From a virus, in UHGV virus genome UHGV-0127437: 51,462 nucleotides of DNA. One strand, 5' to 3'. A program made the position numbers and the translations under genes. Each line of letters opens with the position of its first letter. The first letter of the stretch is position 1. Under the pieces are notes generated by a model. It was not told the DNA's origin. It saw only the letters and a list, made by a program, of their open reading frames with translations, and ran no database searches. Below are positions 2,035 through 50,667 of the stretch, piece by piece.

Positions 2035-2397
2035 ATGTTAAAGCTATTTAGTCGATATGTTTCGGTTGGTGTTGTGAACACCGCGATTCATTGGTTATGC
2101 TTTGCTGGTTTGCTTCACTTCTTTGGCGCCAGCCAGGCCATTTCCAATGTTACGGCATTTTGCGTGGCTGTAACTTTTAGCTTCTTCGCTAATGCAAAGT
2201 TTACTTTCAACTCTCAGGCTACGACCGGGCGTTACATTGCGTTCGTCGTATTCATGGGGGTTATGGCTATGCTCACTGGGTTTATCGCAGATCAACTCAA
2301 GGCACCACCGATTTTAACGCTTGTGGCGTTCTCGGCTTTCAGCCTGATCGCGGGATTTATCTACTCAAAATTCATAGTATTTAGGGATGCTAAATGA
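2035..2397 (+). CDS. gtrA: GtrA, bactoprenol-linked glucose flippase (O-antigen modification)
   Basis: 120-aa membrane protein from ATG at 2035 ([20 protein letters not shown]...[11 protein letters not shown]...[11 protein letters not shown]) matching GtrA family signature; stop overlaps gtrB start (ATGA). Confidence 0.8.
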
Positions 2398-3314
2398 AAA
2401 TCTCTCTGATCGTTCCGGTCTTCAATGAAGAGGCCACGATACCGATTTTCTACAAAACGGTTCGGGAATTCGACGAATTAAAACAACATGAAGTTGAGAT
2501 AGTATTCATCAACGATGGCAGCAAAGACACAACGGAATCAATTATCAATGCGCTTGCTGTATCCGATCCGCTCGTCATGCCATTATCATTTACCCGTAAT
2601 TTTGGCAAGGAGCCAGCTTTGTTTGCCGGGCTTGATCACGCAACAGGTGATGCTGTTATCCCTATCGATGTCGATTTACAAGACCCCATTGAAGTTATCC
2701 CGCATCTGATAGAGAAATGGCAGGCTGGCGCTGATATGGTTCTGGCTAAACGCACCGATCGTTCAACGGATGGAAGGCTAAAACGAAAGACCGCAGAATG
2801 GTTCTACAAGTTACACAACAAAATCAGCAACCCACAGATCGAAGAGAATGTGGGTGATTTCCGTCTCATGTCCCGTGAGGTTGTGGAAAACATTAAGCTA
2901 ATGCCAGAACGTAACTTGTTCATGAAAGGCGTTCTTAGCTGGGTTGGCGGAAAGACTGACGTTGTGGAATATGCCCGCGGCGAGCGCGTAGCTGGTGACT
3001 CTAAATTCAATGGCTGGAAATTATGGAATCTGGCTCTTGAAGGGATCACCTCCTTCTCAACGTTTCCGCTACGCATGTGGACATACATTGGCCTTTTTGT
3101 CGCAGGTCTGTCATTCCTGTATGGGGCATGGATGATTGTTGATAAGTTATTTTTCGGCAACAGCGTCCCTGGCTATCCGTCGCTGCTTGTATCAATACTT
3201 TTCTTGGGGGGTATTCAACTTATTGGGATCGGTGTTCTTGGTGAGTATATAGGAAGAATTTATATAGAAACAAAGAAAAGACCAAAATATATTTTGGGGA
3301 AACGCAAAAAATGA
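2394..3314 (+). CDS. gtrB: GtrB, bactoprenol glucosyltransferase (GT2 family)
   Basis: 306-aa [16 protein letters not shown]...INDGSKD...DVDLQDP motifs of GT-A glycosyltransferase, C-terminal TM helices; operon position after gtrA. Confidence 0.85.
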
Positions 3315-4909
3315 GAATAACGAAGATTTTTATTGTCACTTTGACATTCATTGTTATAAGTCTGCCTTTATTTGGTCACTTCTGGACGTCAGGAGACCTG
3401 TCCGCCCATTATTATAGGCTCATATCTATAAAACATCAGTTGGAAACACATCAGTTTCCGATGTATTTCGATTTCGTAACTGATAACATGCAAGGGTATG
3501 GATATTCATGGAATTTATTTTACCCTCCACTGACAGCTTTTCTGTATACAATTATAGAGCTATTAAGCTTTAATAGCATTGATGCTGTTATACAGTTAAA
3601 AATAAGCATAGCAATAATCTCAGCAATAAATTTTTTTATTATGTATTTTTCTGTAAAGAGAATTTTCAACTCTTCACAAATTGCTTTTATCTCAGCGATA
3701 CTATCCGTTACATCATACTATTTTCTATACAATCAATACACTCGCTCTGCATTTCCTGAAGCTCTTGCTATGAGCTTTGTACCCTTGTTACTTTTGGGGC
3801 TATTTGGGTACATCAACAACAATAAAAATAAAATTTATTTACCATTGTCGTTTTCGTTAATACTGTTAACAAATATACCCGCAACCATTGTCACTCTTAT
3901 ATTTATAACTTTATTTGTAGTAATCTTTCATAAGAAATTCATAGAACAATATCGAGATGTAATTTTACATTCATTTATAGTTATTGGTATAACGTCATTT
4001 TTTATACTTCCGCTTTATTACACATCTAAAGGTGACATTTACGCCTTTACATCTATGAAATCAAGTTATGAATCAATGTGGAAGCTAACCATACCAGTTA
4101 TTAACTTAATCATACCGACAAGAACAACGGAGTACCCTTTCAGACTTATTACACCGGGATGGGTTATAATGGGGCTAATAATAGCCTTGTTCACCATGAA
4201 AAAAAATGGTGATAAATTATCTTCCATGCTTGATGGGCACCATAAGGTGGCTATTTCAATATCTTTATTATTCATAATAATGTGCTCACAAATGTTCCCA
4301 TGGAATCACATACCAAAACAGCTTCCGGTACTTAATTTCATTCAGTTCCCCTGGCGAATGATGCTTATATCATCGCCAATCCTGTGCATTTTCGCTGCTC
4401 TAACTCTTGTCAAAATCGCCCAAGAATCCCAAGGGAAGAAAGGTTTAATTTATATTGTCATATTTTCATCAATTATTCTTTCTATGTATGCGTCAACAAG
4501 TCCATTCGATAACAAGGCGAGACTGCCATGGTATCAAGTATATCTTGATTACATGCCTAACAACATGGCGAGAAAAATAAATGAAATTAAAAAAACCAAA
4601 AAAGAACCTATAGTGTTAAGTGGAAATGGAAGTATTGTAAGCGCTAGATTAACTGGCGGCTATCCAACATATAAATATATTTGCATGGATGATTGTACAA
4701 TTCAACTTCCTGTAATTCCTTATAGAGGATATGAGGTAGAAGGAGTTAAATCTTTTTCTGAAAACAACATGGGGTTGATGCAGGTTAACGTATCAAAAGG
4801 GAGTGGGCAAATAAATTTAAAATATAATCCAATTATTATCTACATATCATACGGAATTACGTTAATCACAATAATATTGTTGTTATATTTTACAAGAAGA
4901 AAATCATGA
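3311..4909 (+). CDS. GtrC-like serotype-specific O-antigen glucosyltransferase (polytopic membrane protein)
   Basis: 532-aa very AT-rich ORF with many predicted TM segments, third gene of gtr operon, start overlaps gtrB stop; followed by strong terminator. Confidence 0.6.
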
Positions 4910-4911
4910 TA

Positions 4912-4944
4912 GAAGGGGCCGCATAAAACGGCCCCTTCTTATTA
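4912..4944. terminator. Bidirectional rho-independent terminator between convergent gtrC and tailspike genes
   Basis: Perfect 10-bp stem gaaggggccg/cggccccttc with 8-nt loop, T-run on + strand after stem; lies between the two convergent stop codons. Confidence 0.7.
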
Positions 4945-6978
4945 AACTATATTACCCACACCATCTTTCCACGCACTTCCTGTCCATGTGATAGCATAAC
5001 CAAGAGTTGTATCCAGTATCTGCGCTCCTGCATCTGCTGCGTTTAATGAAGGGCGTAGTGCGGTCGTAAAGCTCGGTATCCGCACAGGTTTGTTAGCCTG
5101 TATGACGTTGTTCGGAGAAGTAATGTTACCAAAAGAACCAGATACTACGTGGATGACTGCGTAGCGATAACGTAACGCACCTACGCCAGTCCCTTCATCA
5201 GTGCCTAATGAAATAGTGCCGTCTCTGTGTGGCCGCAGGTACGCATGGCTACCTGACTCGTATACCGGGCCGAGGCGCATTGGGTTGGCGGTGCCGATAC
5301 AGATCCAGTTGGCAGAGAATAGCCGGTTATATGCTGTAGGGGCAGACCCATCAACATTATTGACTGTCAGGTCACTGACACCCAAGCCGTTGTGCCCACC
5401 AATAATACTCACTCGACCCGTAAGGTTAGTCATATAGTGGGTTCCAGCTTCACTATAGGTGTTTACCAAGTTAACGTTCGCTACCCGGTTCATGTAGAGA
5501 TTCCCTACACGAATGGTCGTGTTAACAAAGAATAGCTTGCTGCCGCGCCCATCCTGCCATTCTTTCGGATAACCGTTGACTGACGTTGTACCACTCCCAG
5601 ATCCGTCTGTAGCGTAATCGTTCATTCGGTTCGCGGGTTTCTCTGCGGTGTTTATCGCGGCATCGAGGTAAACCCCGCGAATGACGCTATTTGAGAAAAA
5701 CAGGTCGGACGTTCCTGTGCCGCCCCAAATCCAGTTAAGCGCGTAGCCGTTAGCCCCTTGCGGGTATTTAGTCCCGTCCCGGATATCCCGGTCAGTACCC
5801 TTTAGTTTCAACCCATACGAGCTAATCGCGCTTACCAACTGAGTGGGCTGTTTTGGGTCGAGAGGCCATGCAAAGAAATTATCGAATGACAAATCGCACA
5901 TGCTTTGACTGTTGATGCGCCCATTGATATTGAACGTATTGCCAGAACCGTTATTCTGGTCAGATCGGGAGCAGTCGAGGAGAACTGCATCATTCGCAAA
6001 GTAGCCGATAACCGCAGTACCAGACAAGGTTAACCCTGACACTGCCGGAACAAACAGGCCATATGAGAAGCACGCCGTTGCCCCGACGTCATCCACCCCG
6101 GTCAGCGATGGCGCTTCAAGAGTCCCGTCTGTCCGTTTGCGCCACCCCATCAGCACAACGTTGTTGATTGAGATTCCGTGGTCGCAAATACATAAGCCTG
6201 CACTGATCGCCGGGTCATCAGCGCCCTCTACAACGTCTGTCAGGACGTACGTTGCGGGGGTGCCTTTGAGGTTAAATCGGGTAAATCCCGGATCACTGAT
6301 AAGCGTCGCGAGTGTCGTCGCCTCATGACGCATACTATGTGAACGCACCGTGACGGCCTGCGCACCGGTAATGGTCGTGTTTCGTGGGATCATTCCCCAT
6401 TCAATATCAAAATCACCTGGGGGGAAGTGGCAGTTCCTACCAGCATTCTCATCTAAAAACGCCTGGATTTCTTCTTTTGTTGCGCCGCTTCCCCCCGTGA
6501 AATACACGTCATAAGACAGCCGTTCTGCAACCGTCACATCACCATAGCCGATCTGATCTGCACCGGTTGGCAGCGCCAGTTCGCGGCGCAGGACATCGCT
6601 GACATCTACGGCCAGCCATTTTCCGACACCTGTACCGCCGGATGAATCTGGAGTAGAGCCTGGCGGAACGGTTTTCGGTAGGGTCGTTAGATCATCCCAG
6701 CGATACCATGCGCCTGTTGTCTCATCCTGAATGATGTCACCGGCGGAATTAATAACCGCCCCGCCCTGAAATGTCCCGACTGGATTTAAGCCGAGGTTCG
6801 CGAGCGCTGTTTTATAACGCTCTTCCATTCCATGCCACGTAAGGCGCGGCACGCCAAAACGGTCATCCCATGTTTCATTAACCCGGTCATTCGAAAGGTG
6901 ATCAAAGTTCTGTGCGTTATCGTAAAGAACCTTGGCGGATGCAGAACCAAGAGGTTCATTGGTGTTATAGGTGGTCAT
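4942..6978 (-). CDS. Tailspike / tail fiber receptor-binding protein (likely O-antigen specific, beta-helix type)
   Basis: 678-aa ORF, ATG start; conserved phage-tail-attachment-like N-terminus, Gly/Asn/Thr-rich repetitive body typical of beta-helical tailspikes; P22-like position next to gtr operon at prophage end. Confidence 0.65.
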   Translation of the reverse strand: MTTYNTNEPLGSASAKVLYDNAQNFDHLSNDRVNETWDDRFGVPRLTWHGMEERYKTALANLGLNPVGTFQGGAVINSAGDIIQDETTGAWYRWDDLTTLPKTVPPGSTPDSSGGTGVGKWLAVDVSDVLRRELALPTGADQIGYGDVTVAERLSYDVYFTGGSGATKEEIQAFLDENAGRNCHFPPGDFDIEWGMIPRNTTITGAQAVTVRSHSMRHEATTLATLISDPGFTRFNLKGTPATYVLTDVVEGADDPAISAGLCICDHGISINNVVLMGWRKRTDGTLEAPSLTGVDDVGATACFSYGLFVPAVSGLTLSGTAVIGYFANDAVLLDCSRSDQNNGSGNTFNINGRINSQSMCDLSFDNFFAWPLDPKQPTQLVSAISSYGLKLKGTDRDIRDGTKYPQGANGYALNWIWGGTGTSDLFFSNSVIRGVYLDAAINTAEKPANRMNDYATDGSGSGTTSVNGYPKEWQDGRGSKLFFVNTTIRVGNLYMNRVANVNLVNTYSEAGTHYMTNLTGRVSIIGGHNGLGVSDLTVNNVDGSAPTAYNRLFSANWICIGTANPMRLGPVYESGSHAYLRPHRDGTISLGTDEGTGVGALRYRYAVIHVVSGSFGNITSPNNVIQANKPVRIPSFTTALRPSLNAADAGAQILDTTLGYAITWTGSAWKDGVGNIV

Positions 6979-29513: not shown

Positions 29514-29617
29514 ACTGGCTCCAGAAACGACAAAGCCCCGCACGATGGCGAGGCTTTAAGTTCGTCGACAATCAAAGCTATGGCGACAATATCAGATTTA
29601 CATGAAATATAGCCGTT

Positions 29618-34554: not shown

Positions 34555-35136
34555 ATGAACGCTAACTCACAGCCAACGCCAGATCAAGAAATCAAGATCG
34601 AGGTCATCCGCTGGCATCAAAAACTCCAGGAAATCACCTACATCGAAGCTGGTCAACACATGCGTGCTTTGAACCAACTGATGTGGCAGATTCCAAGTCT
34701 GGTAATCGCCATTAATGGTGGGCTCTGGTATGCTGCTACACTAGTTAATGAAGCCTCACTTTGGATGATTTTTGCTTTTTTAACAGTTTTCGACCTGCTC
34801 ACTATTTGCACGCTTTTTCGACTTAGGGTTCTGATAGGAAAAAAAATAACCAAACAAAATGATATTGAAGAACTATCGAAAAATAGCATACTTCAAGACC
34901 TTAGTAATAAATCCGGCATAATAATCTCACCTACCCCAGCTCCTAAAAAAGAGAGCAAGTTCATTGTAGTTGGATGCTGGACCATATGCTTATTGCTCTG
35001 CGCTATTATTAATTTTCATGGCTCATTTAATCCGTCGATATTTTCAAAACCTAGCGAAAACAATAAGTCCGAACAAAACACAACTCACCTCATCTGTGTT
35101 TCTAAGACAGCACCCACAAATGGAGAAATAAAATGA
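34555..35136 (+). CDS. Hypothetical polytopic membrane protein, low-GC cargo
   Basis: 193-aa ORF, ATG start; at least three hydrophobic helices; stop overlaps downstream methyltransferase start. Confidence 0.5.
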   Translation: MNANSQPTPDQEIKIEVIRWHQKLQEITYIEAGQHMRALNQLMWQIPSLVIAINGGLWYAATLVNEASLWMIFAFLTVFDLLTICTLFRLRVLIGKKITKQNDIEELSKNSILQDLSNKSGIIISPTPAPKKESKFIVVGCWTICLLLCAIINFHGSFNPSIFSKPSENNKSEQNTTHLICVSKTAPTNGEIK

Positions 35137-35738
35137 CCACATGGAAATTTTATGATGACAATGCCTTACGTTTATTTAATGACTATCAATCCCTAAATTT
35201 TAAAGATATATTTTCTGACGTTGAATCCTACTTCCTTGCTTCCCGCGGAGATGCTCTGGACGTAGGTGCTGGTTCTGGAAGGGATTCTGCTGCTTTATTT
35301 AAAATGGGCTACAATGTAACAGCTGTAGAGCCAAGCGATAACATGCGAAATCTTGCGGCCGAAAATCATAAGCACTGTGATATTACTTGGGTCAATGATT
35401 CATTGCCTGAACTAAGAAAGATCACTCAATCACTAAAGACCTTTGACCTTATAATTGTTAGTGCAGTCTGGATGCACCTAAATGAAAACCAGCAGGAGAG
35501 GTCGTTATTTACTCTATTCAATCTTCTATCCGCCAATGGAGTTATGATCATTACATTGCGATTAGGGCCAGCCGAACCCGATAGACAAATCAGTGTGATT
35601 TACACAGAAGATTTAATTGCTCTTTCAAAAAAATTAGGGCTAACGGTTGAATATATTAGCCCTGTCAATACGGATAGTTTTAATAGACCATCCGTTACTT
35701 GGCAAAAAGTGGTTTTATCTAAAAAAACCACTTCATAG
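35133..35738 (+). CDS. Class I SAM-dependent methyltransferase (substrate unknown)
   Basis: 201-aa ORF with motif I DVGAGSGRDSAAL and downstream acidic/hydrophobic motifs of Rossmann-fold MTases; no DPPY/NPPY DNA-MTase motif seen. Confidence 0.65.
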   Translation: MTTWKFYDDNALRLFNDYQSLNFKDIFSDVESYFLASRGDALDVGAGSGRDSAALFKMGYNVTAVEPSDNMRNLAAENHKHCDITWVNDSLPELRKITQSLKTFDLIIVSAVWMHLNENQQERSLFTLFNLLSANGVMIITLRLGPAEPDRQISVIYTEDLIALSKKLGLTVEYISPVNTDSFNRPSVTWQKVVLSKKTTS

Positions 35739-35744
35739 ATGCCA

Positions 35745-36989
35745 TTACTCACAAAGCCCATAACGTGATGAACAGACCTCGGTATTCAGGCTTGATTTGA
35801 CCAAGTCGTAGACTTTCCCCCCGCGACCTGTTTTGGCCCACTCCACAACTTCATCAACACTTGGCGAGTTCAGGTTTGCGCGAGGTCCATAGAACCCAGA
35901 CCAATCAATATGCTGCACCTCAGGTTCTAACCCATAGAGCTGCACATTTCTACCAAGGGGCAGGTCAAACGACTTCATCCAGCGCTGGTTTATCTCGCCA
36001 ACACTCATCCAGTGAACCCAGCGAGACGTTAGACGAACCTTCAGCTCCCACTCTTTGTGCTTCTCAATATGCTCCGGCCAGCGCGAAAATGTCTCAGCAA
36101 TTTCTTCTTTGTTACACAGCACGCAATTCATACAACCGACACGTGAGGCTCCCTGCGTGTAAAGCGGGTTTGGCGATATCCCGAAGTATTTGTGGAGCGC
36201 GAATACATCTGTGGCCGTCCACTGGTGAATGGGAAGGAAGTTATACAAAAAATCCGGGTCACGCTTGTCAGTGGAGAAGCGCTCATAGCTGGCTCTCTTT
36301 GATGACTCATCTGCCCGTACACCAGACCACTGGACGACCACGTCGCCATCATCCAGCATTGGTTGCAGAGCTTTATCAAAGGCGATCTGAATTTTGAGCT
36401 CATCGGTACAGAATCGGTCGCGAAGCATCGGAAATTTACCATGCAACAGTGCGCAGTCTAGAAAGCTATTTCCGCTTGGATGCATAACAGACAGAGCAGC
36501 ATCCAGCGCAGTTTCGAATTCAATTCCCCAACGCTCAGCAGTACGCAGCCAGGCCTGCCCAAACGCTGTATCGGAGCGGCCGAGTGAAGGCATAACAACA
36601 CCCCTATATGCCCCCATACGAATGGCCTGACGCTTAACCCAGTTCTTCTGGATGTATCCTCGGCGGCGTTCAAAATCAACCTCGGTATATATCCGCTTAA
36701 CAACCTGAACTGGCGCGCATCCAATCTGTTCATGGATAGTTTTTGCGAACTGTACGGTAAGCTCGTGTTCATTATCTGTATCAGCCATAACAGCCTGAAC
36801 TCTACCGCCAAACAATGCATGGGCAACTGCCAGAGTGGCCGTGCTGTCCTTTCCTGCTGAATAATTGACGACGATTTTGTGATCATCAGGGATGCGGAAT
36901 TCAGTGAGGTAGCGATTATAGGCCAATCCAATTTCGCGAATTTTTTCGCTGATGTCGGTCGGTGCAATAATCATTGCTGCGTTGCTCAT
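35745..36989 (-). CDS. Phosphoadenosine phosphosulfate (PAPS) reductase-family PP-loop protein (IbrA-like phage protein)
   Basis: 414-aa ORF with PP-loop motif NYSAGKDST and extended C-terminal domain; resembles phage/prophage PAPS reductase-like proteins as recalled. Confidence 0.7.
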   Translation of the reverse strand: MSNAAMIIAPTDISEKIREIGLAYNRYLTEFRIPDDHKIVVNYSAGKDSTATLAVAHALFGGRVQAVMADTDNEHELTVQFAKTIHEQIGCAPVQVVKRIYTEVDFERRRGYIQKNWVKRQAIRMGAYRGVVMPSLGRSDTAFGQAWLRTAERWGIEFETALDAALSVMHPSGNSFLDCALLHGKFPMLRDRFCTDELKIQIAFDKALQPMLDDGDVVVQWSGVRADESSKRASYERFSTDKRDPDFLYNFLPIHQWTATDVFALHKYFGISPNPLYTQGASRVGCMNCVLCNKEEIAETFSRWPEHIEKHKEWELKVRLTSRWVHWMSVGEINQRWMKSFDLPLGRNVQLYGLEPEVQHIDWSGFYGPRANLNSPSVDEVVEWAKTGRGGKVYDLVKSSLNTEVCSSRYGLCE

Positions 36990-40421: not shown

Positions 40422-40964
40422 TCACATGACACCCGGCGCTATGGCCGCGATACCACTCAGAACCTGAACGACAGCATCACCCGGCAACATATTCAGCAGA
40501 TGCTCAATCCCTTCCCTGACCTCTTTCACCAGCTGATGCTTTGGCGCATTCAGCATTACGGCCTGTTTCGCCTCGCTGATTTCCTTCTCCATCGCTGCAA
40601 AACGCGTCATGAAACAATCCTGTCCGATAAGACGCCCACGAAATTCCATCGGCAAAACAGCCAGGATTGCAGGAGTCAGCTGGCGGATGTTTTCGCGCGC
40701 ATATCCGGTATCACTGTCCAGCCAGCGGAAAAGCTTCTGCCGCTTACGGCTCAAGTCATCAGGAAAATCCAACCCGGCGCCGCCCTGCCGTTCCCATTCT
40801 TCAACGATGATCCCGGCGACTACGTCCTGGTTGTCCAGCGATGCCGACCACGCACGAACGGCAGCACGAATCTGGTCATGCTTATCCGCCGGATCAGGCT
40901 GATTGCGATTTATCATCGTGGCCGGAGGAAACCCGGTATTTTGTTGAAATGAAATTGAATGCAC
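40422..40964 (-). CDS. YdaT-like protein at cII position (regulator/toxin-like family)
   Basis: 180-aa ORF immediately downstream of cro; segments EEWERQGG...LTPAILAVLPMEFRGRL resemble Rac prophage YdaT as recalled; GTG start with GAGGG RBS. Confidence 0.45.
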   Translation of the reverse strand: MHSISFQQNTGFPPATMINRNQPDPADKHDQIRAAVRAWSASLDNQDVVAGIIVEEWERQGGAGLDFPDDLSRKRQKLFRWLDSDTGYARENIRQLTPAILAVLPMEFRGRLIGQDCFMTRFAAMEKEISEAKQAVMLNAPKHQLVKEVREGIEHLLNMLPGDAVVQVLSGIAAIAPGVM

Positions 40965-40966
40965 GG

Positions 40967-41200
40967 TTACGCCCTCGCTTCCTGCGCCGGTAATCCATCC
41001 GTTGGGTTCGGATACAGATCAGGGCGCAATTCGTGAGGGGTAACACCGGTTATGCTGTGAATTTTTAATATGTAATCTGGCGGCACAATGCCTCTGTCGC
41101 GATGTTTCCAATGGCTAATTGACATACTGGTTACACCAAGTGCCATGCTTAACTTTCTCGCTGAACCAGCAGCCTTAATTGCTTTATCAAGTGCTGTCAT
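40967..41200 (-). CDS. Cro-like HTH transcriptional regulator
   Basis: 77-aa ORF divergent from cI-like gene; HTH segment ARKLSMALGVTSMSISHW; AGGAG RBS. Confidence 0.6.
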   Translation of the reverse strand: MTALDKAIKAAGSARKLSMALGVTSMSISHWKHRDRGIVPPDYILKIHSITGVTPHELRPDLYPNPTDGLPAQEARA

Positions 41201-41301
41201 TTTCTTCTCCTAACTATCAACGAAGAAAGTAAACCACAGATTTATATTTCAAGCAATATTCAATTTATTGAGTGTGTAAACTAACCATTTACAATGAGAG
41301 A

Positions 41302-41685
41302 ATGAGAAAAGAAGAACCCAACAAAGCATTGATAGCGCGACTCAATGAGGTCTATGCCAGAGGCATTACCAAAGCAGATATGGCGCGAATAGCCGGAGTC
41401 TCGCCTCAGGCGGTCAATAGCTGGTTTAAAAAAGGCGTTATTAGCAAAAAATCAGCACTGGCTATAGCCGATGCTGTTGGCGTTTCGATCGCCTGGCTAC
41501 TCGGGGAAGATGTCGGCGAGAAAGATGGTATGAAGCCCGACGAGCAGCGCCTGCTGGAACTCTATCGCCAGTTGCCGGAAGAAGAGCAGCAGAACATGTT
41601 GCGGATCGTGTCTCTGCGCCTTAAGGAACTCGACGAGCTGTACGCCAAGTACATGGGACGGCGGATTAAGGGTGATGCGGAATAA
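41302..41685 (+). CDS. CI-like prophage repressor, HTH (XRE family) without S24 peptidase domain
   Basis: 127-aa from ATG at 41302 (track GTG at 41272); HTH ITKADMARIAGVSPQAVNSWFK; too short to contain LexA-like autocleavage domain. Confidence 0.65.
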   Translation: MRKEEPNKALIARLNEVYARGITKADMARIAGVSPQAVNSWFKKGVISKKSALAIADAVGVSIAWLLGEDVGEKDGMKPDEQRLLELYRQLPEEEQQNMLRIVSLRLKELDELYAKYMGRRIKGDAE

Positions 41686-41777
41686 CTCCCCACGGAGAGC
41701 TTATGAGGCTGGGTATTGCACATAGGCCATACGAACCACCTCTGGGTAGAAAACTTAAATAAAATTTAATAGTGGGA

Positions 41778-42692
41778 ATGGTAATGGAAGCACCTTATCA
41801 ATTAGAATTCACTGAAAACATTTATTATTCAATAGGTAATAACCCCAGCATTAAAGAAATCATTGAGTCTCTTCAAGGCTGGGAAGCTATTATCAAACAA
41901 TCTAAAGGAGTCCTTGCAGAGCTAACTGGAAGTGATATCCTGGATATTGAAGTTAGGGTTCAAAAGTTAGAAGTCGGGAGCCTAACTGAAAAAATTCTTA
42001 TCAAGTTAGGTTTTGGCAACGAAGAGAATTTTGATAAATTTCTCGAAAATGCGCATGAAAGGTACATCGGAGAAGGAAAAATGCGTAGCGCCTTAGTTTG
42101 GACGGTTATAGCAGGTGTACTCGCCACGGGTATGTATTTAGCCGTCAAAAACATGGCACCCAATAATGCCTCCCACTTCGAAGCAAATAATAATATAATC
42201 ATTAACATAGGTGCTGGCGAAACTAACATTTCACCTGAAAGAATACAGTCGGTGCTCAATAGTACATTAGTTGATAAAAAAACCGCTGCCAAAGGTGCTG
42301 TCAAAATTTTATCTCCAGCGCGAAATGACGAAAATGCAACATTAATGATAGGTAGCGATAACACTTCCGTAACAATACCTTCAGATTTAATCTCTAAAAC
42401 ACCAACCGAGGTTAGTTTTGAAGCTGATACATATACTCGAGACCATTACGATGTTGACCTTGAGATAAGAGCTCTTGATCTCGACAATCCGACAAAGGGA
42501 TGGGCTGCCGTGATTCCTGGCTTAGTTGATCGAAGGGTAAAACTAGTTTTGGCACCCGGGATTAAACCAGAAGACCTATCCCATAAATTCGCCTTCCGCG
42601 CTGATGTAACCATTACTTATAAACTTACGTCATCTAAAGGCGAAGCATACAAGCCAACAGAAATATTTTTAAGCAAATTAATCGCGGAATGA
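41778..42692 (+). CDS. Hypothetical single-TM protein downstream of repressor (rexAB-position cargo; candidate exclusion/abortive-infection gene)
   Basis: ~305-aa AT-rich ORF co-oriented with cI, one central hydrophobic helix (LVWTVIAGVLATGMYLAV), followed by strong terminator. Confidence 0.5.
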   Translation: MVMEAPYQLEFTENIYYSIGNNPSIKEIIESLQGWEAIIKQSKGVLAELTGSDILDIEVRVQKLEVGSLTEKILIKLGFGNEENFDKFLENAHERYIGEGKMRSALVWTVIAGVLATGMYLAVKNMAPNNASHFEANNNIIINIGAGETNISPERIQSVLNSTLVDKKTAAKGAVKILSPARNDENATLMIGSDNTSVTIPSDLISKTPTEVSFEADTYTRDHYDVDLEIRALDLDNPTKGWAAVIPGLVDRRVKLVLAPGIKPEDLSHKFAFRADVTITYKLTSSKGEAYKPTEIFLSKLIAE

Positions 42693-42696
42693 AATT

Positions 42697-42722
42697 AACC
42701 CGGCCACCGCGCCGGGTTTTTA
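42697..42722 (+). terminator. Rho-independent terminator ending immunity-region transcript
   Basis: Stem cccggc/gccggg, 6-nt loop, T5 run immediately after stop codon of 306-aa gene. Confidence 0.7.
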
Positions 42723-43037
42723 TTGCCCTTTCCTCACAAACTCCGCAGCATCCCTCTTTGCGCCCTTGACTGTTTAGCAGCTATACACGCTACATCTACT
42801 TAATCAGGCTATCCTTGTTGATATATGATGCAAATAATCAGTTGGGAAATAATAAGAGAGTATCTGATAGTATGCCTGGTAACTGTTGTTATGGTCGCCG
42901 CGATTTCACTGGTTATGCTGGCCTGGTGAATTTTGCAGGGGTCTTTTCCCTGAAACATGCGCGACAACACACTCTGGTAAGACAAGCTCTGTTATGGTGC
43001 ATGAACAAGAAATAACAGCACCATATATCCGACTTAC

Positions 43038-43072
43038 AGCCCGGATTACGACACGTTCCGGGCTTTTTTTTT
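43038..43072 (+). terminator. Strong rho-independent terminator
   Basis: Stem gcccgga/tccgggc with 11-nt loop followed by T9. Confidence 0.75.
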
Positions 43073-43075
43073 GCC

Positions 43076-43285
43076 CTATTCTTCCAGCAACTTCACCGCC
43101 AGTTCCATCGCCTGAATCTGGTCAGCATCCCACTTATCCAGCCCCTTCGATATCTCCGTTCGTATCACGTCAGCTATAGCCACTCTTTTGGTTTCATGCC
43201 CTTCAGCCACCATCGCAAACACAACATCACCCACAATCCGGCACATTTCCTGATAGCGCAACTGCGCCAGTTCCTCGTAATCCAT
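43076..43285 (-). CDS. Hypothetical small acidic protein
   Basis: 69-aa ORF from ATG at 43285 with GAGGG RBS (track start is GTG at 43327). Confidence 0.4.
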   Translation of the reverse strand: MDYEELAQLRYQEMCRIVGDVVFAMVAEGHETKRVAIADVIRTEISKGLDKWDADQIQAMELAVKLLEE

Positions 43286-43558
43286 CACTAACCCTCGGCA
43301 ATTGATGTTTTTGTGAGCATAACACACGCTCCCTCTCCCAACATATAAACCTAAAATTTACACCAAACATTAATTGAAAGTTGACACAACTATAAACCAG
43401 TGATTTAATCAATATCACAGCAACACGACCACCCAGGCAGGACGCCCACGAAGTAGCCGTCCGGGGCATACGAAGACCGGAATGAGGTGGATGAGTTAAC
43501 GCGCAGCAGGTATCAAACGTTCCGCCAGCCGGGCGACAACGGCAAGCAGAGGGTGAAA

Positions 43559-44392: not shown

Positions 44393-44680
44393 ATGGAAAT
44401 CGTAAAAATCGAAATGAACCTGAAAGCAGTGAATAAAGAATTGGCTGTATTCAACTGCGAGAAGAAAGTATCAGGCGTTATTCATTCAGCCGAAACGGGC
44501 GCGGTCACGGTCATTCTTGACGGTGGCTATGTATTCGGCAAGTTCGACTGTCCTCTTTGTGCTGTAGAGGCAATTTCAATGCTGTCCGTAAAAGTAAGTG
44601 ATGGCGATAACGCCGGGTTTGGCAACTACCGCAGCTACAAACTCGATTACTCAGAAAAGGTTTTCAGCACCGTTCATTAA
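44393..44680 (+). CDS. Hypothetical protein
   Basis: 95-aa ORF, ATG start, early-left operon. Confidence 0.4.
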   Translation: MEIVKIEMNLKAVNKELAVFNCEKKVSGVIHSAETGAVTVILDGGYVFGKFDCPLCAVEAISMLSVKVSDGDNAGFGNYRSYKLDYSEKVFSTVH

Positions 44681-44807
44681 GCAAAAGCCCACACGAAGTG
44701 GGCCTGCCCGTCCGGCGTCACCGACCAAAGCGAACCGGACATTTCTACCTGGTAAAACCGAGGTGCCATTAAGGCGCCTCCATTCTACACGAATTGAGGA
44801 TAAAATA

Positions 44808-47720
44808 ATGAGTGGAACTAATCCTGTATTTTTAGTCCGCAAAGCAAAGAAATCATCAGGCCAGAAAGATGCAGTTCTCTGGTGCAGCGATGATCTTGAA
44901 GCGGCAAATGCCACACTGGATTATCTCCTGATTAAATCCGGCGCAAAGCTGAAAGATTATTTTAAAGCTGTTGCCACTAATTTCCCCGTCGTTAACGAGC
45001 TTCCGCCAGAAGGCGAACTCAGCTTAACGTTCTGCGATTTCTACCAGCTTGGAAGCGACAACATGACCTGGGCGCAGATCCCCGGTGTTACGTTGCCCTC
45101 TTCTGATGCTGCCGCCGAAGCACGTCAGCATATCGTTAACGGTGTTGATACCGAAACAGGTGAAGTGCTGGAAGATCACACAGAAGAAGTTGTTGATACC
45201 GAAACTGGCGAAATTACCCAGCACGAACAGCCGTCAACTGAAGACAATGGCGATCGACCTGAACACCCTCAGTTAACTGTTGTGGCAACGATGCCCTTCC
45301 GTCATCGCGTTCTGGCTCAACATATTGGCGATGGCGAGTATCTCTATCATGTCGATGAAGAGCAGAAAAAAGCAATTCTCGCTCTGGAAATGGACACTGA
45401 TAACTCATATGTCCAGAACCTTTTACTTGCGTCTGAGAATGTTGAACCATTCAAAAAGGCCATTGAACACGATATCCATAAAGCGGTAAATGCTGTTAAG
45501 AACGTGTTTCCTGCCGATGGCAAAATCCCTGAGCTGGCAAGCGTTATCCAGTTTCTGAAAACATGGTTCGATACCCCTCATATTGATCGCGGGCTGCTCG
45601 TTAAAGAGTGGTGCAAAGGTAATCGTGTATCAGCTATTCAGCGTACTGAAAGCGGCGCGAACGCTGGCGGCGGAATTGCATCCGATCGCAAAATGCCCCA
45701 GACCACTCTCGGTCTTGAATTTGAAATAGCCTTAGGCCTGCTGGCGCGTCAGTATGAATTTGATATTTATTCTCTGCCATTGCAGATCGAACTAAAGGCT
45801 AATTCAATCATGAACGCAGTTGACGACCCTGAGTGGCTGGCAACGCGCGAACTGTTCGTGTCAATGCCTGGTGGTCTGGACTATTCCCGCGCATGCATCG
45901 TTGCAACGGTAAAAACCACACCAGATGAACTGTACAAATCCCCATTTCGCCACCGCGAGTACCTGAATAAGGTGCTGACAGAAACTGACCATGCCAATCC
46001 CGATCCGCTTGTCGTTGATATTGCCTGCGGACGTTCGTCCATGCCTATGCCAACGCCAGTAAGACAGGATGAACCATCCGTTGAAGAAGTAAACCGACAA
46101 CTCGCAGCTGCGCGCGGTGATTACGTTGAAGGTATCAGTGACCCTAACGATCCGAAGTGGGTTCATGAAGACTACAACGCCGCCTCAAATGAGGGAGAAA
46201 AAACGGAAAATGAGGACGTCGCCGATGTGCAGGTTCAAGAAACTGACGGTAATGAAGAACAGGCTGGTGATGCGCTGCGTACAAGCGAAAGCGATCTGGG
46301 GAATGGTGAAGAAGCAGATACCGGCGAACAAGCCGATGTAGACCACAATCAACCGGAAGTGAGCCAGAACAACGATTCTGCAAGCCATTCTGAGCCAGAA
46401 GCGCAACAGGAAGAACCAATGCCAGTGTGGCCGGAATACTTCGAGCCGGGGCGTTATGAAGGCGTACCGAACGAGGTATATCACGCGGCGAATGGCACCA
46501 GTTCGACGATGGTAAAAGATGCCCGGGTATCGCTGATGTATTTCGAGGCGCGCCACGTATCCAAAACCATCCAGAAAGAACGCACCAAAGTCCTGGATAT
46601 GGGGAATCTGGTGCACGCGCTGGCATTACAGCCTGAACAACTGGAAAAAGAGTTCAGCATCGAGCCGGAAATCCCGGAAGGTGCGCTCACGACGACAGCG
46701 ACGATCCGCGCGGTTATCGACGAACACAACGCCAGCCTGCCGGCATTACTCACCGCAGACGATATCAAAGCGTTGCTGGAAGAATACAACGCCACCCTGC
46801 CCGCGCCATTACCGCTTGGGGCATCCGTTGACGAAGCGTATGCGTCATATGAGCAACTCCCGGAAGAGTTCCAGCGCATCGAAAACGGGACTAAGCATAC
46901 AGCAGCGGCAATGAAGGCCTGCATCAAAGAATACAACGCCACCCTGCCGCCGCAGGTGAAAACCAGCGGAAGCCGTGACGCGCTGCTTGAGCAACTGGCG
47001 ATCATCAACCCTGACCTGGTCGCACAGGAAGCACAGAAGCCACAGCCGTTGAAAGTATCCGGCACCAAAGCGGATCTGATTCAGGCAGTGAAATCCGTCA
47101 AACCTGAAACAGTGTTTGCCGACGAGCTGCTTGACGCATGGCGCGAAAACCCCGGCGATAAAATTCTGGTTACCCGCCAGCAGTTGAGCACCGCGCAGGC
47201 CATCCAGAAAGCGCTGCTGAATCACCCGACCGCCGGGAAGCTGCTGACGCATCCGAACCGCGCCGTAGAGGTGAGCTATTTCGGTATTGATGAGGAAACC
47301 GGGCTGGAAATCCGCGTGCGCCCAGACCTTGAAATCGACATGGGCGGCCTGCGCATCGGTGCGGACCTGAAAACCATCAGCATGTGGAATATCAAGCAGG
47401 AAGGCCTGCGCGCCAAACTGCACCGGGAAATCATCGAGCGCGATTATCACCTGAGCGCTGCCATGTACTGCGAAACCGCAGCGCTGGACCAGTTTTTCTG
47501 GATATTCGTCAACAAAGACGAGAACTACCACTGGATCGCCATCGTCGAGGTATCCGAAGAGTTGCTGGAACTCGGCATGCTGGAATACCGCAAAGCAATG
47601 CGCGCCATAGCGAACGGGTTCGACACTGGCGAATGGCCAGCGCCGATTACCGAAGATTACGCCGAAGAACTCAACGATTTTGATGTGCGCCGCCTTGAAG
47701 CGCTGCGCGTACAGGCATAA
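44808..47720 (+). CDS. RecE-like exonuclease VIII (large early recombination protein)
   Basis: ~970-aa ORF from ATG at 44808 with GAGGA RBS, immediately upstream of RecT-like gene as in Rac recET; contains internal EYNATLP repeats. Confidence 0.55.
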   Translation: MSGTNPVFLVRKAKKSSGQKDAVLWCSDDLEAANATLDYLLIKSGAKLKDYFKAVATNFPVVNELPPEGELSLTFCDFYQLGSDNMTWAQIPGVTLPSSDAAAEARQHIVNGVDTETGEVLEDHTEEVVDTETGEITQHEQPSTEDNGDRPEHPQLTVVATMPFRHRVLAQHIGDGEYLYHVDEEQKKAILALEMDTDNSYVQNLLLASENVEPFKKAIEHDIHKAVNAVKNVFPADGKIPELASVIQFLKTWFDTPHIDRGLLVKEWCKGNRVSAIQRTESGANAGGGIASDRKMPQTTLGLEFEIALGLLARQYEFDIYSLPLQIELKANSIMNAVDDPEWLATRELFVSMPGGLDYSRACIVATVKTTPDELYKSPFRHREYLNKVLTETDHANPDPLVVDIACGRSSMPMPTPVRQDEPSVEEVNRQLAAARGDYVEGISDPNDPKWVHEDYNAASNEGEKTENEDVADVQVQETDGNEEQAGDALRTSESDLGNGEEADTGEQADVDHNQPEVSQNNDSASHSEPEAQQEEPMPVWPEYFEPGRYEGVPNEVYHAANGTSSTMVKDARVSLMYFEARHVSKTIQKERTKVLDMGNLVHALALQPEQLEKEFSIEPEIPEGALTTTATIRAVIDEHNASLPALLTADDIKALLEEYNATLPAPLPLGASVDEAYASYEQLPEEFQRIENGTKHTAAAMKACIKEYNATLPPQVKTSGSRDALLEQLAIINPDLVAQEAQKPQPLKVSGTKADLIQAVKSVKPETVFADELLDAWRENPGDKILVTRQQLSTAQAIQKALLNHPTAGKLLTHPNRAVEVSYFGIDEETGLEIRVRPDLEIDMGGLRIGADLKTISMWNIKQEGLRAKLHREIIERDYHLSAAMYCETAALDQFFWIFVNKDENYHWIAIVEVSEELLELGMLEYRKAMRAIANGFDTGEWPAPITEDYAEELNDFDVRRLEALRVQA

Positions 47721-49165: not shown

Positions 49166-49381
49166 ATGTCACAGGTAATTTTTAACGAAGAGTGGGTTGT
49201 TGAGTCCAGACTTACCGAAAGAACAGGACTTACTGAAGGACAGATTAAAAATTATCGCCAGAAACTATGGGTTGAAGGTGTTCACTTCAAGCGCCTTACT
49301 GCGCTTGGACAGACTGACAACTCTAAAGGTCTGCTTTGGTACAACTACCCGAAGATTAATCAGTTAGTTCAGGATGCTTAA
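49166..49381 (+). CDS. xis: Excisionase-like protein
   Basis: 71-aa ORF immediately upstream of and overlapping integrase start; size/position typical of Xis. Confidence 0.6.
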   Translation: MSQVIFNEEWVVESRLTERTGLTEGQIKNYRQKLWVEGVHFKRLTALGQTDNSKGLLWYNYPKINQLVQDA

Positions 49382-50667
49382 TGAAATACCCGACTGGTGT
49401 TGAACTGCATAACGGAAAAATCAGGATCACATTTATCTATCGCGGCATTCGTTGCCGCGAAGTTCTCCAGGGTTGGGTTGTCAACAGTAGCAATATTAAA
49501 AAAGCGGGCAATCTGCGCGCGGCAATTGTGAGTGAGATACAACTCGGTAAGTTCGACTACGCAGATCGTTTCCCGGAATCAAAGGCTCTTAAGAAATTTT
49601 CGTCCACAAAACGGATCTCCACATTCAAAGAACTGAGTGATTTTTTTACAGATACAAAGTCACTGGAGGTATCTGAAGCCACTTTGCTATCCATCACATC
49701 AGTCGTTAACACCCTGAAACGAGTCGTGGGCGAGAACACACGGCTGGTTGATATTCAGCACGCAGATATTCTGAATTACCGCAAAGAACTCCTGACCGGG
49801 GAGGTTTTCAACCCTTCAATGCCAAACCGCATCAAAAATGGGCGCGCGCCCTCAACAGTCAATAAACAGATGGCTGTTTTATCAGAAATGCTGAAGCTTG
49901 CAAACCGAAGCCAGTTTATATTGCATGCTCCTTATGAAGGAGTGTCGAGACTCAAGTTATCTAAAAATGATCCCGATCCACTTTTACTTCATGAGTACCA
50001 GGCACTGATAGCCGCCCTTCCCCGTAGCCAGGCATTAATCATCATTATTGCAGTGCATACGGGGATGAGGCCGGGCGAGATATGCGCACTGGCATGGGAA
50101 GATATTGATTTGGTAAAAGGTGAAATCCACGTATCCAGAAATTTGACGAACAAGCGAGTATTTGTACCCCCTAAAACAGATGCCGGGATAAGGACGATAA
50201 CGTTGCTGAAACCTGCTCATGATGCTCTGCTGGAGCAATACGAAATCACCGGGAACAGTCCAAAACAGGAAATTAAGTTTCATCATCGTGAGATCGGAAA
50301 AACTGAGCAGCAATATCTTCGCTTCGTTTTTTCACCGACATCATACTCGTCAACGAAAGGCGGTTACTTTTCCAAGGACTCGATTTCCTATGGCTGGAGG
50401 CGTGGAACTAAACTTTCAGGTATACGTGAGCGCAATCCATATCAGTCGCGTCACACATATGCCTGCTGGACGCTGATGGCCGGAGCGAACCCGTCGTTCA
50501 TTGCCAGCCAGATGGGGCATGAAGATGCGCGTATGGTGTACGAGGTTTACTCCAAGTGGATTGGTGACATGAACCAGGATCAGGTCAACATGCTGAACAA
50601 TCAGATGCCGACAGCACTGCCCCCAGGACGCCCCCACGGGCGAGGGAGTATGAAAAAAGTCATTTAA
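49381..50667 (+). CDS. int: Tyrosine site-specific integrase
   Basis: 428-aa ORF; catalytic-region motifs HTGMRPGE...(R) and SRHTYACWTLMAGANPSFIASQMGH...Y typical of lambda-family tyrosine recombinases. Confidence 0.85.
   Translation: MKYPTGVELHNGKIRITFIYRGIRCREVLQGWVVNSSNIKKAGNLRAAIVSEIQLGKFDYADRFPESKALKKFSSTKRISTFKELSDFFTDTKSLEVSEATLLSITSVVNTLKRVVGENTRLVDIQHADILNYRKELLTGEVFNPSMPNRIKNGRAPSTVNKQMAVLSEMLKLANRSQFILHAPYEGVSRLKLSKNDPDPLLLHEYQALIAALPRSQALIIIIAVHTGMRPGEICALAWEDIDLVKGEIHVSRNLTNKRVFVPPKTDAGIRTITLLKPAHDALLEQYEITGNSPKQEIKFHHREIGKTEQQYLRFVFSPTSYSSTKGGYFSKDSISYGWRRGTKLSGIRERNPYQSRHTYACWTLMAGANPSFIASQMGHEDARMVYEVYSKWIGDMNQDQVNMLNNQMPTALPPGRPHGRGSMKKVI

Follow-up and report, generated by a model that had tools for sequence, protein, structure and literature searches.

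A mobile single-gene cassette behind a prophage repressor of Citrobacter koseri and its candidate role in envelope-stage superinfection exclusion

What does a temperate phage encode directly behind its repressor, in the slot that rexAB occupies in lambda, when the gene found there resembles nothing characterised? This question is raised by UHGV virus genome UHGV-0127437, a stretch of 51,462 nucleotides (nt) that was analysed as a whole and is referred to below as the window, where the slot holds one gene for a predicted membrane protein, on record as CKO_01906. An initial annotation, made from the letters of the sequence, had described this gene as AT-rich acquired cargo and had put it forward as a candidate for an undescribed phage-defence function. 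As detailed below, CKO_01906 is a gene under strong selection, belongs to a family of phage-borne single genes with one common architecture, and travels between phages in a short cassette that recurrently lands behind repressors. The reading that we favour, to which we would assign a probability of roughly 0.4, is that its product acts in superinfection exclusion at the envelope stage, rather than in abortive infection or in a role outside defence. The anti-phage activity is suggested by position and topology, and we consider the gene a well-founded candidate for it. The elements of the locus are the following:

41268..41295 (+): promoter-like site TTGAGT-16-TACAAT, from a consensus scan only, ending 6 nt before ATG 41302
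41302..41685 (+), open frame from 41272: cI-type helix-turn-helix (HTH) repressor without S24 domain, with HTH_3 and Phage_CI_repr matches
41686..41783 (+): 98-nt spacer between repressor and cargo, examined with terminator, promoter and fold scans
41784..42692 (+), stop codon included: membrane-protein coding sequence, 302 amino acids (aa), defined by the list of open reading frames (ORFs), the phrog_4506 match, homologue N-termini and the ratio of nonsynonymous to synonymous divergence (dN/dS)
42697..42725 (+): intrinsic terminator at the end of the cassette, with a G+C-rich stem of 8 bp and a U-run behind it

The limits of the gene had first been given as 41778-42722 with 306 aa. The ORF and its strand stand, since the ORF list holds an open frame at 41772-42692 (+) that counts 306 aa from GTG 41772, whereas position 41778 corresponds to an in-frame ATG that yields 304 aa, the form annotated in GenBank (ABV13033 / CKO_01906). 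A third start close by, ATG 41784, yields 302 aa, and both the 302-aa and the 304-aa forms are on record in GenBank and RefSeq. ATG 41784 is most likely the genuine start, because the phrog_4506 profile begins at that methionine (residue 5 of the 306-aa form), because homologues from other genera begin at the same residue, and because a GGGA Shine-Dalgarno-like motif sits 7 nt upstream. The composition is indeed AT-rich and unlike that of the repressor gene: 39.3% G+C with 32% at third codon positions (GC3), against 50.5% and 57%, respectively, in a window of 49.7% G+C.

The exact protein is present in Citrobacter koseri records, including CKO_01906 of C. koseri ATCC BAA-895, and one IMG/VR contig is 100% identical across the entire region. 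Compared pair by pair with its homologues, the gene has a dN/dS of 0.02-0.06 in all cases with a measurable dS, and every domain of the protein shows the same; the gene is therefore functional and under strong purifying selection.

Regarding its family, the protein matches phrog_4506, a group with no assigned function, along its full length (E 2.5e-144, 480.8 bits, residues 5-304 of the 306-aa form against positions 1-299 of the 300 in the profile), and is a plain member of this group, membership in which assigns no role; the PHROGs search matched no other family. A word-indexed protein search retrieved 72 relatives from Citrobacter, Serratia, Yersinia, Kluyvera, Pectobacterium, Salmonella, Edwardsiella, Lonsdalea and Frischella, all of them named "hypothetical", and an exhaustive profile search extended the family to 641 clusters at 50% identity, 266 of them at E <= 1e-30. 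Nearly all of the matches listed are about 300 aa long with a single collinear match, that is, they share one architecture. More distant members, from phage and genome collections, belong to Pseudomonas phages, Nitrosomonas, Pandoraea, Paracandidimonas, Kingella and Pasteurella, a scan of representative genomes added 6 loci, and a 60%-identical relative, always a "hypothetical protein", occurs in 150 of 5426 complete E. coli genomes (~2.8%). One of these homologues, in E. coli NZ_CP090319.1 at 2225204-2226880 (H36), is interrupted by the insertion sequence IS1B, and several E. coli copies are truncated. The family was thus already catalogued, as phrog_4506 and under hundreds of "hypothetical protein" entries, so that "undescribed" applies to its function and not to its existence: the searchable literature held nothing on phrog_4506 or CKO_01906, nor on the candidate PDC-S42 discussed below, and the term Jouyvirus gave unrelated papers only.

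The searches for an assignable motif were uninformative, in agreement with what had been reported from the sequence. The query has no match in Pfam, NCBIfam or PADLOC, its sole Pfam line being DUF5376 at E 0.14, far below the cut-off, and the family profile against PDB sequences returned just the BseCI methylase at a chance-level E of 0.35. The family-wide scans reported here (topology, conservation, Pfam and PADLOC) used 146 diverse representatives; their Pfam scan gave single matches at chance level (ApeA_NTD1 0.007, PycTM 0.0026), and the same is true for the 2TM-effector and PycTM matches of single relatives in PADLOC. No toxin-like or enzymatic domain was found by the Pfam, NCBIfam and PADLOC scans of the query and the Pfam scan of its relatives, nor was a partner gene. 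Further homologue searches yielded "hypothetical protein" names, save for the UniRef name "Baseplate protein J-like" on P0007, which looks like a mis-transferred cluster name and was discarded.

The structure prediction that the initial annotation proposed as a check gave predicted folds for the two soluble halves, ferredoxin-like in the N-terminal half and similar to the oligonucleotide/oligosaccharide-binding (OB) fold in the C-terminal half, with generic fold matches only. The AlphaFold2 model, built on a 46-sequence alignment, has a mean predicted local distance difference test (pLDDT) score of 83 and consists of a beta-alpha-beta-beta-alpha part (5-95), the TM (transmembrane) helix (101-124), further helices (126-175) and a beta-barrel (186-299). 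Translated into positions of the window, the protein is organised as follows:

41784..42077 (+): N-terminal alpha/beta domain, residues 1-98, ferredoxin-like beta-alpha-beta-beta-alpha, acidic, predicted cytoplasmic
42084..42155 (+): single TM helix, residues 101-124, with G116-x-x-x-A120, from the Kyte-Doolittle profile, AlphaFold2 and family conservation
42180..42218 (+): juxtamembrane motif E-A-N-N-N-x-I-I-N-I-G-A-G, residues 133-145, predicted to face the periplasm
42324..42689 (+): C-terminal small OB-like beta-barrel, residues 181-302, acidic, predicted periplasmic

The single central helix that had been read from the sequence was confirmed. The protein has one hydrophobic segment (residues 103-121, Kyte-Doolittle mean 1.97) with no second candidate, and 145 of the 146 representatives have one central helix at about residue 104. 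A hydrophobic stretch at the N-terminus appears in a single representative, which argues that these proteins have no signal peptide. Lysine and arginine residues flank the helix unevenly, with a mean of 3.15 on the N-terminal side against 1.19 on the C-terminal one, the N-terminal flank being the richer in 120 of 146. From this, an N-in/C-out orientation is predicted, which would leave a domain of some 100 aa in the cytoplasm and some 180 aa in the periplasm. The helix carries a GxxxA small-residue motif, in which G116 is conserved in 85% and A120 in 58% of the representatives; such motifs are typical of helix-helix packing.

Conservation is found on both sides of the membrane, although the invariant residues are mostly in the C-terminal barrel. 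Near-invariant on the predicted periplasmic side are P178, P207, A230, D232, D234, G239, W240 and R251; R229 is conserved in 79%, and the juxtamembrane motif, whose N137, I140, N141 and I142 are invariant in A1, is 51-69% conserved across the 146 distant representatives. In the cytoplasmic domain, L30, G65, S66 and F77 also exceed 90% conservation. Both globular domains are acidic throughout the family, the OB-like barrel with a median net charge of -3, which argues against binding to DNA or other nucleic acids. Four close pairs have measurable divergence, and in three of them the barrel exceeds the N-terminal domain in nonsynonymous divergence by a factor of 2-3. Foldseek searches of a viral structure library matched uncharacterised phage proteins only, and the other fold matches, the MscS beta-domain and the DapE dimerisation domain for the cytoplasmic alpha/beta domain, are generic.

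The gene lies directly downstream of the cI-type repressor and on the same strand, so that the rexAB-equivalent slot was correctly recognised. The probable start of the repressor is ATG 41302 (127 aa), its E. coli sibling is also annotated at 127 aa, and this type of protein is annotated as a repressor in mEp237 and other phages. TTGAGT-16-TACAAT is a candidate promoter for a repressor-cargo transcript, and by analogy with lambda PRM we infer a near-leaderless repressor mRNA, which would continue into the cargo gene. The 98-nt spacer at 41686-41783 contains no terminator, no consensus promoter and no unusual structure (z -0.41), the promoter scan being one that picks up near-consensus sigma-70 sites only; this fits read-through from the repressor promoter. 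The strong terminator ascribed to the gene is present immediately after it, as a hairpin at 42697-42718 with 8 bp, 6 of them G-C, followed by UUUUUAUU and with a folding energy of -14.5 kcal/mol. Altogether, the layout fits a co-transcription of the membrane-protein gene with the repressor. The same layout is found in Escherichia phage Lambda_ev203 and its relatives, where a 60%-identical homologue comes directly after a 235-aa cI, with no terminator between both genes and one directly 3' of the homologue.

The proposal that the gene is acquired cargo is borne out by the comparison of related loci, which delimits the exchanged unit:

41640..42724 (+): mobile cassette block, formed by a 3' remnant of the repressor gene, the spacer, the gene and the terminator, from blastn against L015, L016, L018 and L019

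Loci with repressors unrelated to that of the window share this block at 98.5-99% identity. On its 5' side it begins within the repressor gene of the window, 45 nt from the 3' end of that gene, and on the other side it stops just past the terminator (42724). In L015, L016, L018 and L019, the window piece 41640-41685 survives at 3857-3902 as non-coding DNA beside a different repressor. This is a footprint of the recombination, or cassette exchange, that moved the block.

The cassette recurs behind repressors of many kinds. A cI-type ORF lies upstream and on the same strand in 28 of 45 IMG/VR loci, immediately upstream in all of them but L037, where it is about 500 nt away, and the repressors of these 28 loci group, at 50% identity, into 10 clusters, S24 domains being present in some of them and lacking in others. 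A repressor-specific partner was accordingly rejected as an explanation of the cassette, which pairs with 10 repressor types. The family is not tied to the slot after the repressor, and relatives of the gene occupy other accessory-gene positions as well:

Serratia rubidaea genome (L066) and metagenome contigs related to it: in the interval from the Q antiterminator gene to the holin gene, on the strand opposite to theirs
Pseudomonas phage PseuP_222: behind Q
Pseudomonas phage vB_Pae_U9: third gene behind the repressor
Two Mu-like phages: repressor side of the point where early and late genes diverge
Frischella: in a P2-like remnant, flanked by ogr and gpD

Conversely, the slot is filled differently in close siblings. 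Position is conserved in Lambda_ev203 and in the 28 loci mentioned above, whereas sibling phages carry other cargo: an E. coli prophage that is nearly identical (95.5% in the flanks) has another ORF there, of 117 aa, and PHB10, mEp237, SEN34 and Klebsiella phi9.2, with repressors 65-85% identical, have other small unknown genes or, in the case of mEp237 and SEN34, a second HTH gene. The contents of the slot after these 65-85% identical repressors lie at 2963-4089 in L070, 2904-3520 in L071, 2891-3292 in L072, 3006-3416 in L073 and 4709-5062 in L002. The slot looks like a diversity hotspot, with a different uncharacterised small gene in each phage. Among the loci examined, the family is always phage-borne and always a single gene, and it has two marks of a "moron", presence and absence among related phages and a deviating GC3; of the terminator and promoter that a moron would bring of its own, the terminator is present, and the scan for near-consensus sigma-70 sites gave no promoter in the spacer or upstream of the antisense copy in L066. 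Judged by these comparisons, the cassette is a horizontally mobile accessory-gene cassette of the immunity region.

How would such a protein act? According to the envelope-stage reading, the gene would be transcribed in the lysogen by read-through from the repressor promoter, and its product would be a single-pass inner-membrane protein with an acidic ferredoxin-like domain in the cytoplasm, a GxxxA helix that probably mediates self-association, and a periplasmic part of about 180 aa ending in the OB-like barrel. Acting as a single-gene superinfection-exclusion or defence factor, it would bind through its periplasmic domain either the DNA-delivery apparatus of the incoming phage or a host inner-membrane or periplasmic factor used by that apparatus, so that entry of the foreign genome would be blocked and the cell would survive. 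We favour this reading because the largest part of the protein, with most of its near-invariant residues, is predicted to be periplasmic, because the barrel outpaces the N-terminal domain in nonsynonymous change in three of the four close pairs, and because no enzymatic or toxin domain and no partner gene were detected.

The reading also draws on known prophage-encoded blockers of DNA entry, which are likewise anchored at the membrane. SieA of P22, gp15 of HK97, Sie2009 of Tuc2009 and Ltp of TP-J34 are inner-membrane or surface-anchored proteins (PMC10883804), and CKO_01906 shares with them the origin as a prophage single gene and an anchored product that faces the compartment crossed by the incoming genome, which makes them our working analogy. 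SieA itself has 162-164 aa, three helices and an FxRYPxEAxxFNK motif (PMC10883804); with 302 aa, one helix and no PHROG matched other than its own, CKO_01906 does not belong to it, and differs from the whole class in its additional conserved cytoplasmic domain of about 100 aa. It may thus work like the SieA/gp15 class without being part of those families. A second precedent is SNIPE (PD-lambda-1), which demonstrates that a single-pass inner-membrane protein can intercept injection through contacts with the tape measure and a host channel, as it is active while the genome is being injected and is associated with both the tape measure protein and the host ManYZ (PMC13190303). Both are single-pass inner-membrane proteins; however, SNIPE has its helix at the N-terminus and both DUF4041 and a nuclease domain of the GIY-YIG type in the cytoplasm, while CKO_01906 has a central helix and the opposite predicted topology. 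Membership in SNIPE was rejected, as neither Pfam nor PADLOC gave a DUF4041 or GIY-YIG match.

A link to the catalogued defence candidates was found through PADLOC. When the 146 representatives were scanned individually, three of them matched the candidate PDC-S42, the best one being P0198 (E 5.9e-6, 24 bits, residues 31-247 against positions 23-227 of a profile of 302), and the window protein gave no match even at E <= 10. Equal length and a collinear alignment that runs from the N-terminal domain through the helix into the first portion of the C-terminal part speak for a sister family rather than a hydrophobic artefact; PDC-S42 is probably such a distant relative, and membership is not implied. 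A 69%-identical relative of P0198 also resides in a Mu-like phage.

Several observations weigh against an envelope-stage exclusion factor. The orientation on which it depends was derived from the positive-inside rule only. The carriers span different virion types (podo-, sipho-, myo- and Mu-like), namely tailspike-bearing P22-like, lambda-like, Mu-like and a P2-like remnant, so the protein is not tied to one injection machine, unlike the usual self-type exclusion proteins. A simple periplasmic plug does not explain the equally strong conservation of the cytoplasmic domain, and the conserved acidic motif of the barrel (D232, D234, W240 and R251) suggests a conserved ligand, perhaps of the host, rather than phage targets that evolve fast. 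Upstream of the antisense Q-holin copy (L066), the promoter scan found no sigma-70 consensus site. Finally, the PDC-S42 link is a weak one, given its low score, its restriction to three of 146 relatives, the lack of a match for the query itself and the absence of this candidate from the searched literature.

A first alternative, which we regard as unlikely, is that CKO_01906 is an abortive-infection effector, idle in the inner membrane until infection induces its oligomerisation by way of the GxxxA helix and the cytoplasmic ferredoxin-like domain, which would then depolarise or permeabilise the membrane and kill the cell before the phage is released, in a way functionally akin to RexB, AbiP/PdpSau, or the single-TM effectors of the cyclic-oligonucleotide-based antiphage signalling system (CBASS) and the pyrimidine cyclase system for antiphage resistance (Pycsar). 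The slot shared with lambda rexAB would suit such an effector, as would a single conserved gene with a conserved small-residue motif in its helix; the cytoplasmic domain could sense an intracellular cue, and its alpha/beta fold is one often used for oligomerisation, as the matches to the MscS beta-domain and the DapE dimerisation domain illustrate. Nevertheless, one helix per subunit makes a poor pore former unless many copies assemble, and the query has no match to any Abi, Rex or effector model of PADLOC, the 2TM-effector and PycTM matches of its relatives being at chance level.

The resemblance to RexAB is one of position and kind: a slot directly 3' of cI without intervening terminator, a closing terminator, and dispensable accessory genes. 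RexAB, however, is a two-gene system in which RexB is described as an ion channel triggered by the sensor RexA, whereas CKO_01906 is one gene with one helix and without PADLOC or PHROG similarity to it, and membership was rejected on the grounds of the single gene and the lack of sequence homology. BstA-family genes also sit downstream of prophage repressors, and PADLOC includes a BstA model; this family was discarded as well, since there is neither a Pfam match (no KilA-N) nor a PADLOC one. A loose likeness, which also speaks for abortive infection, is that to AbiP and PdpSau, prophage or plasmid single genes of about 280-300 aa that combine a TM helix with an OB-like barrel. PdpSau, whose structure AbiP is reported to resemble, carries its helix at the very N-terminus and has a basic OB-like domain in the cytoplasm (PMC10127798), while in CKO_01906 the helix is central and the barrel acidic and predicted to be periplasmic. 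This difference counts against the abortive-infection effector and, with no PADLOC match, against membership in that group.

Another explanation, in our view doubtful, is lysogenic conversion outside defence, in which the protein would benefit the host in its niche, as lambda bor and lom do, for instance through stress tolerance, colonisation, resistance to bacteriocins or effectors, or the modulation of a periplasmic or inner-membrane machine. Such a factor would present the same accessory-gene features, a deviating GC3 and a mobile cassette, and the family does occur in carriers of every virion type; the high conservation of the periplasmic motif across Enterobacterales, Orbaceae, Pseudomonas, Nitrosomonas and Pandoraea likewise suggests a conserved host ligand. 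Placement after repressors, by contrast, is typical of exclusion and defence genes, the PDC-S42 link, weak as it is, points in the same direction, and Pfam and NCBIfam revealed no similarity to known virulence or fitness factors.

A more elaborate mechanism, to which we would give rather little credence, is that of a transmembrane sensor-effector. Here, the barrel would recognise the delivery apparatus or the host channel, and the oligomerising GxxxA helix would signal to the ferredoxin-like domain, which in turn would act on the entering genome or on a host factor. If true, this mechanism would differ from the SieA/gp15 plugs, from RexAB and from the membrane nuclease SNIPE, and would constitute a new, widespread class of single-gene prophage immunity.

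A role in the life cycle of the phage itself, whether as a membrane sensor for the timing of induction or lysis or as a helper of its own DNA entry or release, appears very improbable. The gene does adjoin the lysis-lysogeny switch, some copies are near lysis genes, and a single-pass "sensor-like" architecture with conserved domains on both sides of the membrane would be in keeping with it. However, the cassette accompanies no fewer than 10 types of repressor unrelated to one another, whether these have an S24 domain or lack it, and is missing from siblings with the same repressor, and is therefore neither essential nor repressor-specific; moreover, the Q-holin copies are antisense to the late operon. 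Lastly, even though AT-rich foreign DNA can carry long chance ORFs and broken or truncated E. coli copies exist, including the one with IS1, a spurious or decaying ORF without function can in practice be rejected in view of the dN/dS values, the 641 clusters with conserved length, TM helix and motifs, and the confident AlphaFold2 model.

To return to the envelope-stage exclusion that we favour, its implications depend on its being true. The kind of gene, a prophage accessory gene that is linked to the repressor and codes for a membrane protein, is a familiar one; judging from the searches, the protein family is unrelated to the characterised examples. If phage exclusion were its function, a new and structurally unrelated family would join the short list of prophage-borne envelope-stage defences, one present in Enterobacterales, Orbaceae, Pseudomonas and Betaproteobacteria, with all its members annotated as "hypothetical". 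Such genes would then shape which therapeutic or environmental phages infect clinical lysogens of Citrobacter, E. coli, Salmonella and Klebsiella. As the cassette consists of one short gene with defined boundaries, it is an easily testable candidate, and the slot after this type of repressor may be productive for finding further systems.

The gene content of the element itself identifies it as a lambdoid prophage of Citrobacter koseri. Its immunity region is of the Rac type and it encodes a tailspike, which suggests a P22-like virion. The genes around the cassette are the following:

40967..41200 (-): Cro-like regulator of the YdaS family (PF15943 4.3e-14; phrog_35), divergent from the repressor
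40422..40964 (-): cII-like regulator of the YdaT family (PF06254 3.9e-48; phrog_163, "CII-like transcriptional activator")
43076-43327 (-): FumD/DUF2767 gene, convergent and downstream of the cassette

The YdaS/YdaT-like pair is followed by O- and P-like replication genes. Beyond the FumD/DUF2767 gene come RecE-like and RecT-like genes, the integrase (49381-50667) and a host response regulator. Operator sequences shared by the flanks of the cassette were sought with a repeat scan of 41150-43520, which found only short pairs at chance level.

The opposite end of the prophage bears the tailspike together with gtrB/gtrC-like genes: a GtrB-like family-2 glycosyltransferase at 2394-4909 (+) and a GtrC-like membrane protein at 4942-6978 (-) adjoin the tailspike gene. 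This pair is probably an O-antigen conversion module and, hence, a second exclusion layer expressed by the lysogen. Still further to the left, at the edge of the window and at or just outside the prophage end, lies a gene for a translesion polymerase of the UmuC/ImpB family (50-1315, -).

Amid the early genes of the - strand, the + strand at 34555-35738 encodes a 193-aa ORF without Pfam match followed by an S-adenosylmethionine (SAM)-dependent methyltransferase, and a 414-aa ORF with a phosphoadenosine phosphosulfate (PAPS)-reductase domain adjoins this pair at 35745-36989 (-). These genes may be another cargo islet or a DNA-modification module.

Rfam matches to small RNAs of Salmonella islands were obtained at two sites, isrB at 44682-44770 (-) with 99.9 bits and isrJ at 29532-29602 (-) with 69.2 bits; the first of them, isrB-like, lies antisense to the long RecE-like open frame at 44598-47720, at the 5' end of the latter. 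Between the terminator of the cassette and the FumD/DUF2767 gene, some 300 nt at 42770-43073 (+) are missing in all the sibling loci compared. This segment contains weak ORFs only, such as the one from TTG at 42815-43015, and ends in a second strong + strand terminator at 43038-43073 (-15.7 kcal/mol, z -4.1, nine U); its product may be a small RNA or a peptide.

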